NCBI GenBank assembly: GCA_903952435.1
Contig: CAJBFN010000009.1
Span: 92-64,091 of the forward strand
DNA from: an uncultured bacterium
GTDB lineage: Bacteria > Patescibacteriota > Saccharimonadia > Saccharimonadales > Saccharimonadaceae
Direction: 5' to 3'
DNA: 64,000 nt
Part shown: positions 22,660-51,147 of the stretch, piece after piece
Position numbering within the stretch: position 1 is the first letter of the stretch
Layout of the letters: every line of letters begins with the position of its first letter
Notes under the pieces: model-generated
Told to the model about the DNA's origin: nothing
The model's input: the letters and a program-made list of their open reading frames with translations, nothing else
Database searches by the model: none
Position numbers and translations under genes: made by a program

Positions 22660-22689
22660 TTGACAACAGAGTATGTTATTTGCTATACT
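22660..22689 (+). promoter_or_regulatory. sigma70-type promoter for rplJL
   Basis: TTGACA-18 nt-TATACT. Confidence 0.6.
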
Positions 22690-22695
22690 CATCCC

Positions 22696-22874
22696 AGACA
22701 TCACCAAAGACAGTAGCCGTAGAAATACTTAATTTGCTACCTAGGATCATGTAAAACATACATTTTTCGATATAGTCTTTGGCAGTGCGAGGTCCAAAGA
22801 CTTTTTCTTTTGTCCTTGCAACCGTCTAGTACGCTTAACAATTTGGTCGAATAATAACCACAGAAAGGATTTTT
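22696..22874 (+). promoter_or_regulatory. rplJ (L10) leader with terminator/antiterminator arrangement
   Basis: Hairpin AGTCTTTGG...CCAAAGACT plus T-run (22774-22811). An upstream CCAAAGAC copy (22704-22711) can compete for the 5' arm. Confidence 0.55.
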
Positions 22875-42223: not shown

Positions 42224-42757
42224 CTAAGGAGCTCTTTTCTTTTTTCTGTTATCTATATGAGCAATCTTTTTCTTTACATCTTTCTCGTCCAAATATGCAA
42301 AATACTTCGCACCTATTTGTTTGTACAAAGAAGATCTAAATTTTTTATTTGGGAATAATATCTTTTCAAATCGATTTTCTTCTATTAAAAAATCTACAAG
42401 CATTTTATAATCTCCATCGCCAGAAACTAATACAATCTTGCCAAATTTTTCTTTTGAATATAATCGCTTCATGACGGAAAATATAATGTCAGAGTCAACA
42501 TTACCTTTTTTATTACCGATCATCGCTGCATTATGCTGCCTAAAAACAAGAATAAATCCAGCATTTTGAATACTCTCGTAAAGCTGTTCTATTTTAACGC
42601 CATCCTGAACATAGCCCAGGTAATAAAATGCCTTTTCGATACCATATTTCTCGCGAAGATACACCCTAAATTTTGCCAAATCGATTTTCCAAGAAGGCTC
42701 GGCACTTGCCGTACCAAGATGTAAATTCTGTCCATCTACATAACAATAATTATTCAT
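42224..42757 (-). CDS. NYN-domain (LabA/DUF88-like, PIN-like RNase fold) protein
   Basis: MNNYCYVDGQNL...VLVSGDGDY motifs. The ORF-track N-terminal extension to 42883 overlaps tRNA-like sequence and was trimmed. Confidence 0.8.
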   Translation of the reverse strand: MNNYCYVDGQNLHLGTASAEPSWKIDLAKFRVYLREKYGIEKAFYYLGYVQDGVKIEQLYESIQNAGFILVFRQHNAAMIGNKKGNVDSDIIFSVMKRLYSKEKFGKIVLVSGDGDYKMLVDFLIEENRFEKILFPNKKFRSSLYKQIGAKYFAYLDEKDVKKKIAHIDNRKKKRAP

Positions 42758-42804
42758 ATTACAGATACAATTATACCACTTTATGTTATAATTTATCTTG
42801 TTAT

Positions 42805-42940
42805 TGGGGATTCGCCAAGTGGTAAGGTGAAGATTATCAGTGATAATCTGCAAGGCCGGAGACTGGATTGCGAACGCAACCAAGCGAGGCGGGATCGCAG
42901 AAAATTATGGAATAATTTTACTGTGACATGGTTTCTGGCA
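42805..42940 (+). ncRNA. tRNA-Gln-derived 5' fragment carrying structured module A (core 42826-42927)
   Basis: 42805-42827 is identical to the first 23 nt of tRNA-Gln; 42929-42938 equals its anticodon-loop region; the ~100-nt insert between them folds into 5 hairpins. TATAAT box at 42787. Confidence 0.45.
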
Positions 42941-42995
42941 CAGGCTACCAAAATATAGCAACGCACAACTTAATAGATTATAATGCATTATGTAA

Positions 42996-43070
42996 TGGGG
43001 ATTCGCCAAGTGGTAAGGCACTGGTTTCTGGTACCAGCATTCGGGGGTTCGAATCCCTCATCCCCAGCCA
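42996..43070 (+). tRNA. tRNA-Gln (anticodon CUG), CCA encoded
   Basis: Hand-folded cloverleaf: U1-A72 acceptor, anticodon stem CTGGT/ACCAG, loop TTCTGGT, T arm GGGGG-TTCGAAT-CCCTC, discriminator G. Close to the E. coli tRNA-Gln pattern. Confidence 0.9.
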
Positions 43071-43077
43071 TAAAAAT

Positions 43078-43110
43078 ATAACTCACCATTTTTGGTGGGT
43101 TATATTTTTA
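43078..43110 (+). terminator. intrinsic terminator after tRNA-Gln
   Basis: ATAACTCACCA-TTTT-TGGTGGGTTAT plus T-run. Confidence 0.75.
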
Positions 43111-43121
43111 TAATTGAGATT

Positions 43122-43326
43122 AGGGGATTCGGGAACCCGAATGTCTCATTCGGGGGTGAGAACTGCCTAGAATGGCAATTCGCAAGGCCGGAAGCCGGAT
43201 GGCGAACGTCACCGACTGAGGCGGGGTCGAGAAAAATTACGAGGTAATTTTATCGTGACCGAATCCCTCCTGTTTTTAAAAACAAGCGGAGGAGCAACTT
43301 GTTGCGATATCCCTCATCCCCAGCCA
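43122..43326 (+). ncRNA. tRNA-Gln-like minihelix RNA carrying structured module B (core 43155-43259)
   Basis: Starts GGGGATTCG; contains CATTCGGGGGT, CGAATCCCTC and an exact 18-nt copy of the tRNA 3' end with GCCA. TATAAT box at 43109-43114, 7 nt upstream; terminator downstream. Confidence 0.5.
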
Positions 43327-43330
43327 CAAA

Positions 43331-43358
43331 AAGAAGTCGGATCTATTTCGACTTCTTT
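43331..43358 (+). terminator. terminator-like hairpin
   Basis: AAGAAGTCG-9 nt-CGACTTCTT, then TTC. Confidence 0.55.
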
Positions 43359-43435
43359 CATAGCTAAGCTTAACTATTCCCCGAACATGGATACCCATAA
43401 TGTAGTAATTTGTACTTTGTAGGGGAATCTGTATA

Positions 43436-44422
43436 ATGGTAGATAATACTATAAACCTTACGAAAGGGCATCTCGTGAATAAACAAAAATATCAATCAGG
43501 GTTCGCACATCATCTAATAATCATAATATCAATTGTAGTTGTAGTTATTGGATCTTTGGGATATGTATATTGGAAGAATTTTATGCAGCCAAAAGTTACA
43601 GCTAATAATACGACAAGTGTTACAAAGCCCGACGGCACAATCGTGACTACAAAACTTGACGCAGATGGCAAGACTATTACTGTGACAAATGCACCCGATG
43701 GAACATCCACTACGGCTAAACCTGACGGTACGGTTGTTGTCGAGAAAGTGAATCCTGATGGTGCCGTGATAGCTACGGAAACTAAATCGGACGGCGCAAC
43801 CACCGACACAGTAATAAGGCAAGCCGTAACAGCACCTGAAACACCAAATGTGTCAGTGACCGGTAATGGCGCCACTTTGGTCGCTATTTATTCCCAATTT
43901 ACTATATCTGGTGCCGGAGCGGAAGGTTATGAAGTATTCAAATCAACAAACTCGAGCGAATACGCATTTTATAATAGGATAGCCGCCTCGCCCGCAGGAA
44001 GTAGTGTAACTATGAGCGCTAATGCCTATAGAGGTGAAACATGCGGTTATAAAGTAAGAGCATATAAAAAAGACGGGGAAGTCTATGTATATAGTGGTTT
44101 TTCATCACCACAAACATTAACTAATTCGACTAGTCCTTTAATAGCAACACCTACAATTTCAATCGGAGGAGCTGGTGCTGAGGGCGATTCATACGGCATG
44201 TTGCTGGTAATGGCGGATACAGATGATGTTAGTGGGTTCCAAATGTTTAGATCTACTTCGGGTGTTGACGGAGAATATACGCTCCTAGAGCAAATAAATG
44301 ACGCTAACGAGTTTTCAGTTACTATACCAATCGGGCAAACTTATTATTATAAAGCGAAGGCATTTGTAACTGATGGCGAGACTACCCTATATAGTGATTT
44401 CTCGACAGTCAAGTCAAGCTAA
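43436..44422 (+). CDS. N-terminally anchored surface protein with PDGT repeats and two Ig/Fn3-like repeats
   Basis: TM helix HHLIIIISIVVVVIGSLGYVYW; repeated (K/A)PDGT units; two repeats ending Y.(V/A)(R/K)A(Y/F)...YS.FS. The ATG overlaps a TATAAT box, so the GTG at 43475 after AAAGGG is an alternative start. Confidence 0.65.
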   Translation: MVDNTINLTKGHLVNKQKYQSGFAHHLIIIISIVVVVIGSLGYVYWKNFMQPKVTANNTTSVTKPDGTIVTTKLDADGKTITVTNAPDGTSTTAKPDGTVVVEKVNPDGAVIATETKSDGATTDTVIRQAVTAPETPNVSVTGNGATLVAIYSQFTISGAGAEGYEVFKSTNSSEYAFYNRIAASPAGSSVTMSANAYRGETCGYKVRAYKKDGEVYVYSGFSSPQTLTNSTSPLIATPTISIGGAGAEGDSYGMLLVMADTDDVSGFQMFRSTSGVDGEYTLLEQINDANEFSVTIPIGQTYYYKAKAFVTDGETTLYSDFSTVKSS

Positions 44423-46533: not shown

Positions 46534-47067
46534 ATGAATTTGTTAATAATTAACGGTTATTCTGCGTCAGGCAAATCCACTCTGTCTTTAAAGTTTTCCA
46601 AGAAACACGACTATGCATTAATCATTCAAGACCATTTTTTATTTAAGATGAACCCTTCCAGTTTAAAAACGAAAAAGCCTAATAGTTTTAATCATGAAAT
46701 TGCACGAATAAATTTATTGTCCTGTATAGAAAACTATATGAAATATAAAAAGGACATACTACTTGAAGGCGCCCTGGTTTCAATTACAGATACCGACCCA
46801 ATTAATATATCGGATTTCATAGATACTGCAAAAAAGTACAACTACAAGACTACCGTGGTAACTTTAATAGCCAATGACTCAGTTCGAAAACAACGTCAGA
46901 AAAAGCGCGGTAACACGCTCTTAAAACATATTGATAAAAAACTAATCGACGCTTCAGATAGACAATATAGCGTATTAAAGAATCACAGAATTGATACGTC
47001 AAAGTTATCTATCAAGAAGAGCTTAGAAGAAATCGAAAAAATAGTCTTTTTTGAACATAAAGTTTGA
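46534..47067 (+). CDS. P-loop NTPase / kinase-like protein
   Basis: Walker A GYSASGKST; TATAAT 6 nt before the ATG. Confidence 0.65.
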   Translation: MNLLIINGYSASGKSTLSLKFSKKHDYALIIQDHFLFKMNPSSLKTKKPNSFNHEIARINLLSCIENYMKYKKDILLEGALVSITDTDPINISDFIDTAKKYNYKTTVVTLIANDSVRKQRQKKRGNTLLKHIDKKLIDASDRQYSVLKNHRIDTSKLSIKKSLEEIEKIVFFEHKV

Positions 47068-50974: not shown

Positions 50975-51147
50975 ATCAGCATATCCAGAGTGCAGCGAGA
51001 GATCTAGCTCTATGACCTGCCGGCAACCAGCCAATTATAAACAAATTGGACAAGGTGCCCCTTCTAGCCCGTACGGGAAAGATAAATTTTTAAAACTCCT
51101 TTATCTTGTTTGTCCGGGCGAAAAGATATGCGAAAGGAGTTCTTTTT
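50975..51147 (+). promoter_or_regulatory. SAM-I (S-box) riboswitch with terminator/antiterminator platform
   Basis: CCAGAG...GAGAGA...ATGA...CCGGCAACC-[P3 CCAATT/AATTGG]-AAGGTGCC-[P4 CCCG/CGGG]-AAGATAAA. Terminator AACTCCTTT...AAAGGAGTT plus T5 (51092-51147) sequesters the SD. AAGATAAA can pair with TTTATCTT as antiterminator. Upstream of metK. Confidence 0.75.

Follow-up and report, generated by a model that had tools for sequence, protein, structure and literature searches.

Three-hairpin modules beside a tRNA-Gln gene: members of an apparently undescribed Saccharibacteria family carried by tRNA gene fragments

Two modules and their family

Two related modules of 100-103 nt, placed on either side of an intact tRNA-Gln(CUG) gene, belong to a large and apparently undescribed family of structured elements, 65-105 nt long, present in Saccharibacteria. 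The stretch of DNA analysed here, 64 kb in all, is termed the window. From the comparison of sequences we favour, with a probability of about 0.5, the view that the modules are insertion elements of a new family, non-autonomous and dependent on structure, which would survive only in redundant fragments of tRNA genes.

The family is sizeable. More than 200 copies of the module, or of relatives with a different middle hairpin, were found in Saccharibacteria MAGs and metagenome contigs; the genome scan returned at least 119 loci (about half Saccharibacteria MAGs, several copies per genome), and a covariance model gave 91 matches in 70 Saccharibacteria loci (loci are designated below by L and a number). 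For nearly every copy an intact tRNA gene is present at a distance of 330 nt or less, and in about 95% of cases the tRNA adjoining the carrier is an intact version of the very same one. The earlier note on this DNA had spoken of insertion into copies of tRNA-Gln: the carriers are indeed derived from tRNA, while the link to glutamine dissolves, since tRNAs of at least 16 identities are flanked in this way. No named RNA family was recognised at the outset, and Rfam 15, searched across the whole window at gathering score and across 42700-43450 with the limit relaxed to E<=10, bears this out, neither module being matched under either setting; the sole real match was tRNA, accompanied by weak miRNA matches on a terminator hairpin. 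A scan of viral contigs with the module pattern gave 0 matches, and literature searches on the module sequence and on the topic found nothing relevant.

Layout around tRNA-Gln(CUG)

The tRNA-Gln(CUG) gene is the only tRNA of the window according to both ARAGORN and Rfam, and two module-bearing units flank it, one upstream and one downstream (Table 1). As had been noticed before, the first 23 nt of the tRNA are duplicated exactly in the upstream unit (2 matches in the window, with 0.00 expected from shuffled sequence), and its last 18 nt in the downstream unit (2 matches, 0.02 expected). The upstream arrangement recurs at tRNA-Gln in L023, L024, L032 and L033, with the same flanks in L007 and L061; tail hairpins homologous to the one that closes this unit, of the form TGGTTTCT(G/A)G..AGGCTACCAGAAA, are found in L023, L032 and L061.

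Mapping of the flanks agrees with the positions first proposed, module A being placed at the junction of the D-arm and the anticodon stem (nt 24-25) and module B in the T-loop. The left flank of module A stops at tRNA nt 23 and its right flank restarts at nt 26; that of module B restarts at nt 55. The beginning of the downstream unit, GGGGATTCGG, had been taken for a copy of the tRNA 5' end. This is the less likely reading: an antisense copy of the T-loop and of the 3' strand of the T-stem fits better, and we prefer it, the feature being general to downstream units. The same layout – antisense copy, loop, sense copy – is seen in downstream units of Arg, His, Pro, Lys, Ile, Ser, Leu, Met and Glu tRNAs. 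In the window the antisense copy, which we call X, pairs locally (CCCGAATG, 43136-43143, with CATTCGGG, 43147-43154), and reading of the sequence also finds the proposed closing pairing of GGGATTCGG (43124-43132) with CCGAATCCC (43259-43267).

As to expression signals, the three TATAAT boxes can be read where they had been placed, while none of them is called by a promoter scan, because their -35 boxes are poor. The two terminator-like hairpins, one after the tRNA and one after the downstream unit, were likewise seen by reading, and a hairpin of the same kind lies 3' of the tRNA in most loci of the downstream type.

Table 1. Features of the tRNA-Gln(CUG) locus, in window coordinates
Feature	Position	Strand	Basis or remark
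TATAAT box, 12 nt 5' of upstream unit	42787-42792	+	read in sequence; uncalled by promoter scan
Exact copy of tRNA-Gln nt 1-23 (acceptor 5' strand, D-arm to GG of D-stem 3' strand)	42805-42827	+
Module A	42828-42927	+	replaces tRNA nt 24-25; covariance-model match
Module A, P1	42828-42852	+
Module A, J1/2	42853-42854	+
Module A, P2	42855-42890	+
Module A, J2/3	42891-42893	+
Module A, P3	42894-42927	+
tRNA-like continuation ATGGTTTCTGG (about nt 26-36), weak hairpin closed by CCAAAA	42928-42953	+	read
TATAAT box, 11 nt 5' of intact tRNA	42979-42984	+	read
tRNA-Gln(CUG), intact, CCA encoded	42996-43070	+	ARAGORN; Rfam tRNA, 59.1 bits
Terminator-like hairpin 3' of tRNA, AAAAATATAACTCACC / GGTGGGTTATATTTTT	43072-43109	+	read
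TATAAT box, 7 nt 5' of downstream unit	43109-43114	+	read
X, antisense T-arm copy	43124-43143	+	read and sequence comparison
Copy of tRNA nt 43-52 (variable loop, T-stem 5' strand), CATTCGGGGG	43147-43156	+	left flank maps to nt 52
Module B, within T-loop	43157-43259	+	replaces two T residues 3' of T-stem 5' strand
Copy of remaining T-loop and T-stem 3' strand, CGAATCCCTC	43260-43269	+	read and flank mapping
Type 2 insert, 5'-truncated, ending AAGCGGAGGAG-hairpin-CGAT; unrelated to the modules	43270-43308	+
Exact copy of last 18 nt of tRNA (T-stem 3' strand, acceptor 3' strand, GCCA)	43309-43326	+
Terminator-like hairpin 3' of downstream unit, AAAGAAGTCG / CGACTTCTTT	43330-43358	+	read

Fold and covariation

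That the two modules are truly related, as had been claimed, is plain from their alignment at 81% identity. Against the covariance model, which was derived from 52 homologues, module A gives 104.1 bits (match at 42826-42927) and module B 109.8 bits (43155-43259), E values being about 1e-22 to 1e-24; nothing else over the 64 kb matches it. Module boundaries were set by alignment-based trimming.

The modules are predicted to fold, on the + strand, as three consecutive hairpins. P1 begins at the first base of the element, the U of UGAG, and is followed by the junction GCAAGG. P2 is the middle domain, which varies with the subfamily, and leads to the junction GGG(G). P3, GUCGCG...CGUGAC, ends with the final C of the element; the terminal GUGAC is the 3' strand of the last hairpin, paired with GUCG. 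A tandem G.A motif, merely K-turn-like, is present at the base of P2.

The covariation announced from two copies is real. Compensatory (double) changes affect 24 of the 36 pairs in the 52-sequence alignment, pairing extends to 96.8% of cells (80.3% in shuffles), and the observed fold values were reached in none of 500 shuffles; controls in which the fold was slid along gave 26-50% pairing. The strand-specific wobbles hold too: G75.U105 is kept in 51 of the 52 sequences, and elsewhere 25 G.U cells face 13 A.C cells. Compensatory changes also occur within orthologous loci, with locus-specific variants of P1 and P3 for Gln, Glu and Phe. The fold first drawn had five hairpins. Its general sense, a structured RNA-type module, is upheld; two of the five hairpins are not. 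The bases of the proposed hairpin CCGG ARR CYGG belong to a long-range helix, RSCYGG / CCRASY, formed around the GAAC hairpin, and the proposed stem with a GAGGCGGG loop falls since its register is unequal in the two copies, the GGC of this motif pairing with the GCC of GCAAGGCC.

Placement in tRNA gene fragments

Placement follows a tight rule. The left flank of the module is GG in 69 of 86 copies and AG in 12, and exactly two tRNA nucleotides are missing at the module in 47 of the 52 cases that could be mapped. At least six insertion positions are used – the nt 7/8 junction, the D-loop, the end of the D-stem (nt 24-26), either side of the anticodon loop and the first two residues of the T-loop – and these are single-stranded in the cloverleaf. 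Orientation is that of the tRNA in 163 of 165 copies (71:1 for the genomes, 92:1 for the metagenomes).

Each module is carried by a partial duplicate of the adjacent tRNA gene, which is itself intact. Upstream units retain promoter, leader and tRNA nt 1 to k; downstream units retain nt k+1 to 76, CCA and terminator, and in front of these stands the same portion of the tRNA in antisense. In L034 and L072 the leader of the upstream fragment duplicates that of the tRNA itself, -10 box included, which makes the carriers look like duplications at the DNA level. Many tRNAs of the same loci have no unit at all, and most of those that do have only one of the two types. An assembly of split tRNAs through pairing of the acceptor strands of the units was set aside for this reason. 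ARAGORN and Rfam call no tRNA at 42805-42953 or 43122-43326, the upstream unit lacking the 3' half of a tRNA and the downstream unit its 5' half. Acceptor or T-arm mimicry, once suggested as a purpose of the units, has no evidence in its favour.

Proposed insertion elements of an unusual kind

The preferred account, that of insertion elements, would run as follows. The element would recognise its targets and enter them, at exposed GG-NN sites, as a folded single strand: most likely RNA, or else the sense DNA strand displaced when a tRNA gene is transcribed. Because an insertion into the sole functional copy of a tRNA gene would kill the cell, only copies lodged in duplicated gene fragments would persist; gene conversion would keep these fragments similar to the tRNA, and the fold would be kept because only folded copies spread or are tolerated.

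Signs of mobility include the six or more insertion positions and the 16 or more tRNA identities given above. Modules are nested in J2/3 of another module, in L027 and in about 10 metagenome loci (for example L120, L130, L170, L188 and L209), and a single fragment carries two modules in L061, L069 and L107. Modules that are 94-99% identical sit at different tRNA species. Empty tRNA loci are seen in L012, L086 and L107, the site orthologous to that of module B lacks it in L023, and related genomes vary in whether a site is filled or empty. A copy in L030 lies within an antisense T-arm. Furthermore, a second family of inserts, type 2, occupies the same niche: the stretch 43285-43316 of the window (its 3' part plus ATATCCCT) is identical to a full type 2 insert and its flank in L023, other full copies are found in L014, L026 and L052, and a reversed one in L025.

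Several points count against the reading as insertion elements. The modules have no enzyme gene nearby and carry no ORF. Terminal inverted repeats are lacking, the first 12 nt agreeing with the reverse-complemented last 12 at 0-5 positions in 69 of 69 copies, and so are target-site duplications: a flanking direct repeat is absent in 60 of 69 copies and never exceeds 3 nt. We know of no mechanism that replaces exactly two nucleotides. Neither does this reading account for the end of the fragment about 10 nt past the module position k, nor for the antisense copy X. No transposase, reverse transcriptase, integrase or endonuclease was seen near the modules, and neither the 70 loci nor the window yielded an autonomous version, in which an ORF or a large insert would part the module halves. 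The NYN gene, earlier pointed out as the immediate divergent neighbour, is incidental and was rejected as a partner: among 70 loci from other genomes a homologue occurs in L023 only, about 2.5 kb from the module. The other neighbours in the window are def, pyrD, alr, DUF998, a nucleotidyltransferase and a zeta-toxin-like kinase, with no recombinase or reverse transcriptase among them. Comparison by eye with attC, IS91 (GTTC target), serine-recombinase and IS110 core-dinucleotide models showed none that fits the junctions.

Competing explanations

A minority view, which we take seriously while holding it unlikely, is that the module is a domain of non-coding RNA useful to the host, displayed on scaffolds of tRNA fragments and made from the duplicated promoter and terminator of the tRNA; its spread would be old and its copies kept by selection. 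It could, for instance, be a platform for protein binding or processing, and could serve as a decoy, a processing signal or a regulator in the metabolism of tRNA or rRNA operons. The P2 core and the junction bases hardly vary across genomes whose spacers defy alignment, and their conservation equals that of the tRNA; within one genome all copies differ, and copies at the same tRNA across genomes share stem variants. All this agrees with a long vertical descent under selection, which such an RNA would lead one to expect. The compensatory changes inside orthologous loci and the invariant G.U wobble also favour this view. Co-orientation with the tRNA, the -10 box of upstream units and the terminator hairpin of downstream ones, the retention of units by small genomes, and the position of tRNA-Ile units in the spacer 3' of the 16S gene in at least seven loci (with a 23S probe match downstream in L201) speak for it as well. 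Against it stands the absence of units at many tRNAs of the same loci. P2, the best conserved part within a subfamily, is wholly different between subfamilies; copies that are nested, truncated or decayed are frequent; certain fragments (L032, L095) have diverged from their tRNA around an intact module; and an unrelated insert, type 2, takes the same sites in either orientation.

We are more doubtful still of a mobile "mini-intron" acting at the RNA level, which would be a new class of such elements in bacteria. Small, and either ribozyme-like or dependent on a ligase, it would enter the exposed GG-NN of folded tRNA-like RNAs as well as its own junction, in the manner of a twintron, and be fixed in DNA by reverse transcription and recombination. 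Among self-cleaving ribozymes, hammerhead, twister, twister-sister, pistol, hatchet and HDV-like types gave no Rfam match at E<=10; hammerhead, hairpin, twister, K-turn, SRP and ZTP structures, compared by eye, do not fit the junctions.

It is improbable that the units are scars of integrase attachment sites, with the module as the conserved end piece of an element otherwise deleted. Integrating elements leave partial 3' copies of a tRNA beside the restored gene, with crossover at the anticodon loop or the T-loop, and the copies of T-arm and 3' end in downstream units, at times in arrays (L014, L079, L088), are reminiscent of this habit. There is no integrase though, the neighbours in the window being housekeeping genes; the units lie just 100-300 nt from the tRNA (50-100 nt separate tRNA and partial copy), and viral contigs gave no match. 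Besides, tRNA sequence stands on both sides of the module, at six or more positions that include the D-arm and nt 7/8, the module is also found in 5' copies that carry a promoter and inserts into other modules, and one integrase could not fit 16 different tRNA core sequences.

Finally, it is scarcely credible that the modules are true introns, whether of group I, group II/III-like or archaeal bulge-helix-bulge type, which working tRNA genes would lose by splicing to give a mature tRNA: the positions do resemble non-canonical intron sites of archaeal tRNAs, nested copies are twintron-like and, counting the preceding G, the ends GUGAG...AC recall the GUGYG...AY of group II, with an A 7-8 nt from the 3' end, but the carriers are truncated beside an intact tRNA, removal of the module leaves a tRNA two nucleotides short, neither group I nor group II gives an Rfam match at E<=10, and no pairing of the module start with the 3' flank yields a bulge-helix-bulge by hand, GAAC and GGAC (after the 5' junction) being unable to pair with CGAA and CAAG (after the 3' junction). 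For group I, moreover, whose P3-P9 core is described by the Rfam model Intron_gpI, a length of at least 200 nt would be expected and the 3' end here is C, not G; for group II, which has six domains including domain V and is covered in Rfam by group-II-D1D4 and Intron_gpII, there are three hairpins only, and the likeness of the ends is mere resemblance.

What the family may mean

Should the present picture of the family hold, ultrasmall bacteria that depend on a host would have a structured element of RNA type spread widely through their lineage. Its placement rule – after GG, in tRNA-shaped loops, with two bases replaced and in the orientation of the tRNA – would be new; to our knowledge no described transposon, intron or repeat family obeys it. 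It would account for the partial tRNA copies around Saccharibacteria tRNA genes, and it would offer a handle on the way in which small introns or inserts colonise genes of structured RNAs. In practice, the units will confuse the calling of tRNAs and pseudogenes in MAGs.

Comparison with known systems

Integrative elements that target tRNA genes leave scars which, like our units, are partial copies next to an intact tRNA and at times form arrays; the modules differ from them in coming without integrase, at tiny distances, with 5' copies, inserts in loops and nesting. MITEs, REPINs, BOX and Correia elements are similar in size (about 100 nt), copy number, absence of ORF, strong fold and modular variants. 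Unlike them, the modules have no terminal inverted repeats or target duplication, and they show a strict orientation and a conserved G.U wobble; nor are those repeats aimed at tRNA loops.

Closer in some respects are IS200/IS605 and their miniature derivatives, which also lack inverted repeats and target duplication, carry hairpins at both ends and are strand-specific; their target is read single-stranded beside a short motif, as would hold for the modules if these are insertion elements. In IS200/IS605, however, some distance separates the hairpins from the ends, and they are conserved for the transposase, whereas P1 and P3 of the modules reach the ends and vary freely. These terminal, variable hairpins, as aligned here, argue against membership of that group; the modules also lose two target bases, and no TnpA gene was seen near them.

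Genes for rRNA in Saccharibacteria carry short unclassified insertions (PMC11270868), to which the modules may be connected. With these, and with the intervening sequences (IVS) of 23S rRNA, they have in common a structured nature, a length of about 100-250 nt, the lack of an ORF, a place at hairpin tips or bases, a patchy distribution and an affiliation with neither group I nor group II introns. IVS are single extended hairpins in working rRNA, removed by RNase III, whereas the modules have three hairpins with conserved junctions and reside in tRNA fragments. None of the 16S genes that the loci include was seen to harbour a module; of 23S, the loci covered about 2 kb of a single gene (L201).

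The mobile non-canonical tRNA introns of Thermoproteales (Archaea) sit in complete working genes, where EndA cuts them at a bulge-helix-bulge. Like the modules, they are short related inserts found at many positions (D-arm, anticodon loop, T-loop) of many tRNA genes, with several per gene possible, and transposition between tRNAs has been inferred for them. The modules differ in having a bacterial host, partial carriers beside an intact gene and no bulge-helix-bulge that can be drawn; they cost two nucleotides of the tRNA and have a conserved three-hairpin fold of their own. Should they prove to be mini-introns that move at the RNA level, they would be a bacterial counterpart of these archaeal introns, with a chemistry of their own.

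The two modules and their place beside the tRNA-Gln gene

The sole tRNA gene of the window lies between two partial copies of itself. Attached to each copy is a module some 100 nt long, and the two modules are 81% identical. Exact repeats of the first 23 and the last 18 nucleotides of the tRNA, which the earlier note had described, are indeed present, where shuffled sequence would lead one to expect 0.00 and 0.02 matches. The TATAAT boxes (none of which a simple promoter scan calls), two terminator-like hairpins and the GGGATTCGG / CCGAATCCC pairing also fall where that note had put them. The neighbouring NYN gene, which it had pointed out, is to be dropped from the interpretation. A search of Rfam, a check that it had named, gives no match to either module, even at E<=10.

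Features of the locus and of the rest of the window
Feature	Position	Strand	Remark
L10 leader	22686-22816	+	Rfam, 57 bits; ordinary bacterial cis-regulator
tRNA 5' copy	42805-42827		first 23 nt of the tRNA
Module A	42828-42927		upstream unit; covariance model match 42826-42927
Tail hairpin	42939-42947		upstream unit
tRNA-Gln(CUG), intact	42996-43070	+
X	43124-43143		antisense copy of tRNA 3' part, downstream unit
Module B	43157-43259		downstream unit; covariance model match 43155-43259
Type 2 insert, 5'-truncated	43270-43308		downstream unit
tRNA 3' copy	43309-43326		last 18 nt of the tRNA
Small AAA / zeta-toxin-like kinase ORF	46534-47067	+	Pfam AAA_33, Zeta_toxin; 3 kb downstream of tRNA locus
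SAM-I riboswitch	50978-51088	+	Rfam, 52.3 bits; ordinary bacterial cis-regulator

A three-hairpin fold

RNAalifold and pair counting, applied to 52 distinct module copies, give a fold made of three consecutive hairpins, P1, P2 and P3. The element's own first base opens P1: U1 pairs with the A of GCAAGG. In the subfamily of the window P2 is a four-part rod, comprising GCC/GGC, a tandem G.A internal loop, RS/SY and YGG/CCR around a C.A mismatch and a bulged A, and the hairpin UGAC-GAAC-GUCA. P3 is GUCGCG...CGUGAC, and its final C is the final base of the element. Over the 36 pairs of the fold 96.8% of the cells are paired, against 80.3% after shuffling and 26-50% with slid partners; 24 pairs have changed on both sides, and there are 279 compensatory cells where shuffles give 65. 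None of 500 shuffles matched any of the observed pairing measures. Chance, considered as the origin of the modules, is excluded by these match and covariation statistics. It is the + strand that folds, as the wobble pair G75.U105, kept in 51 of the 52 sequences, and the excess of G.U over A.C cells at other positions (25 vs 13) both indicate. The earlier note had proposed five hairpins: P1, the GAAC hairpin and the last one stand, while CCGG-ARR-CYGG and the 'GAGGCGGG loop' stem do not survive RNAalifold and the pair counts.

A family with many P2 domains

A degenerate pattern of the unpaired blocks of the module, used for a first scan of species-representative genomes, matches at least 119 stretches. 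About half of the loci lie in MAGs of Saccharimonadales or Saccharibacteria, in many cases with several copies to a genome; the remaining matches are due to chance, in GC-rich genomes. The covariance model derived from the 52 copies finds exactly two matches in the window, of 104 and 110 bits, slightly off a consensus for which the best copies reach up to 122 bits: module B carries a C.A mismatch within P1, and module A begins P3 with A, not G (GGGAUCG), so that this base faces the last one as an A.C pair. Among the matches listed, the same model recovers 91 copies in 70 Saccharibacteria loci, and its weaker matches reveal that there are subfamilies. Common to all is the frame (G)GUGAG, P1, GCAAGG, P2, GGGGUCGCG...CGUGAC, within which the P2 domain differs completely from one subfamily to the next. 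Metagenome contigs, scanned with this frame alone, yield at least 120 loci, with P2 variants by the dozen. Viral contigs scanned for the module gave no match, and literature searches by module sequence and by topic found nothing. The finding is far larger than could be seen from the window alone.

Placement inside tRNA-derived sequence

Nearly every module adjoins an intact tRNA gene, and both of its flanks copy that very tRNA. For 72 of the 86 copies of the genome set the intact tRNA is at most 330 nt away, and 71 of these 72 have its orientation. In a second, independent set, from metagenomes, an intact tRNA lies as near for 93 of 98 evaluable copies, with orientations in a ratio of 92:1. 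The tRNAs concerned there have 16 amino-acid identities, so that the special role once proposed for tRNA-Gln has to be given up. The left flank is GG (69/86) or AG (12/86), the element starts with UGAG or UGAA (81/86) and ends with GUGAC (69/86). Of the 52 copies with both flanks placeable on the neighbouring tRNA, 47 lack exactly two nucleotides of it. Insertion is found at nt 7/8, in the D-loop after GG, at the end of the D-stem (Gln, Phe), in the anticodon loop, on both sides, and at the first two T-loop residues. All these sites are unpaired in the cloverleaf, and hence the target is seemingly read in a folded, single-stranded form.

There are two layouts, both present in the window. An upstream unit consists of a copy of the promoter, leader and tRNA nucleotides 1 to k, the module, and some ten further tRNA nucleotides closed as a hairpin; the intact tRNA then follows after a spacer that contains a -10 box. 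A downstream unit, which begins 3' of the intact tRNA and its terminator, opens with X and a small hairpin, continues with the sense variable loop, the T-stem 5' strand and the module, and ends with what is left of the T-loop, the 3' strands of T-stem and acceptor, and CCA; another terminator often follows.

Several features accompany these units. The tail hairpin of upstream units (window; L023, L032, L059, L084, L103, L104; metagenome Gly loci) often has CCAGGC in its loop, which reads ACCAGGCUA for Gln, ACCAGGCUG for Glu and GCCAGGCCA for Leu and Gly, and is perhaps a third conserved motif of small size. Tandem repeats of downstream units occur (L014, L031, L079, L088), in which terminator, X and hairpin come again and modules are decayed or missing. 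At the Arg(TCT) locus L044, X and the 3' piece are present and the module is missing, as if the site had been deleted or never filled. In L063 (CAISVS010000037.1) a tRNA-Ile(GAT) copy after tRNA-Ala has a T-loop module and lacks the acceptor 3' strand; intact tRNA-Ile was not seen within 1.7 kb downstream. Finally, a second, unrelated insert family, type 2 (GCGTAG..., A/T-rich hairpin, AAGCGGAGGAG, hairpin, CGAT), is found in the window, L014, L023, L025, L026, L044, L052 and L112. It sits in T-loops of tRNA 3' fragments, after TTCG, in either orientation, and is often 5'-truncated and flanked on both sides by a short repeat of the T-stem 3' strand (ATCCCTC in the window).

Signs of mobility, persistence and rival readings

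Modules also nest: in L027 and about ten metagenome loci one is inserted at the unpaired junction between P2 and P3 (GGCGGG/GU/CGCG) of another, under the same placement rule. Two modules share a single fragment in L061, L069 and L107, and L030 has one copy inside an antisense T-arm. Different tRNA species, within one genome and between genomes, bear modules 94-99% identical to one another, and module-bearing loci also include tRNAs that lack a unit altogether (L012, L086, L107). The downstream locus of HGW-Saccharibacteria-1 (L023) is orthologous to that of the window, with an NYN protein 84% identical and a 32-nt identical stretch made of part of the type 2 insert and the adjoining T-stem copy; the module is absent there from the T-loop site that is filled in the window.

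The modules are a new family of small three-hairpin elements, with precise placement inside tRNA-derived sequence, strict orientation, nesting and presence/absence differences between genomes. We rate this family as outside the described kinds of element. The module would most likely be a non-autonomous insertion element, aimed at exposed GG-NN sites of folded single strands. Insertions into a working tRNA gene would be lethal, which would account for why modules are observed in redundant fragments of tRNA genes only. That the modules so nearly always share the orientation of the tRNA would speak for an RNA intermediate, or for the displaced sense strand of a gene under transcription, rather than for a mechanism based on the lagging-strand template. 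As for the carriers, upstream fragments duplicate the -10 box and leader of the tRNA (23 identical nt in L034; also L072), which points to DNA-level duplication rather than to tRNA cDNA.

The main rival sees in the module an RNA domain useful to the host, carried on tRNA-fragment scaffolds. Among orthologous upstream units of tRNA-Gln the core of the module is as well conserved as the tRNA, next to leaders and spacers that defy alignment. Between genomes, modules that sit at the same tRNA have P1 and P3 variants in common, with compensatory differences. This indicates that copies are long-lived and retain their fold. In at least seven loci (L041, L076, L088, L168, L181, L201, L220) units of tRNA-Ile come after 16S and tRNA-Ala, with a 23S probe match downstream of the unit in L201, and this rRNA-operon position makes their transcription likely. 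The tRNA-Ile of these loci is trailed by terminator-like hairpins, odd for a co-transcribed rRNA operon. An insertion element and a host RNA are compatible readings, as the element could have been domesticated. Two further readings are poorly supported: partial copies as integrase scars (an integrase is absent nearby, distances are tiny, 5' tRNA copies occur and inserts sit within loops), and modules as true introns (carriers are truncated, two tRNA bases are lost and the intact gene adjoins).

Known systems compared

In behaviour, the mobile non-canonical tRNA introns of Thermoproteales come nearest. These reside in functional genes of archaea and rely on a bulge-helix-bulge, a structure that cannot be drawn for the modules. 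The features of MITEs are absent. Elements of the IS200/IS605 type, like the modules, have neither inverted repeats nor target duplications and follow a single-strand logic, but their end structure differs. The size of the modules and their preference for hairpin tips recall bacterial rRNA intervening sequences and, by description, the short unclassified rRNA inserts of Saccharibacteria (PMC11270868).
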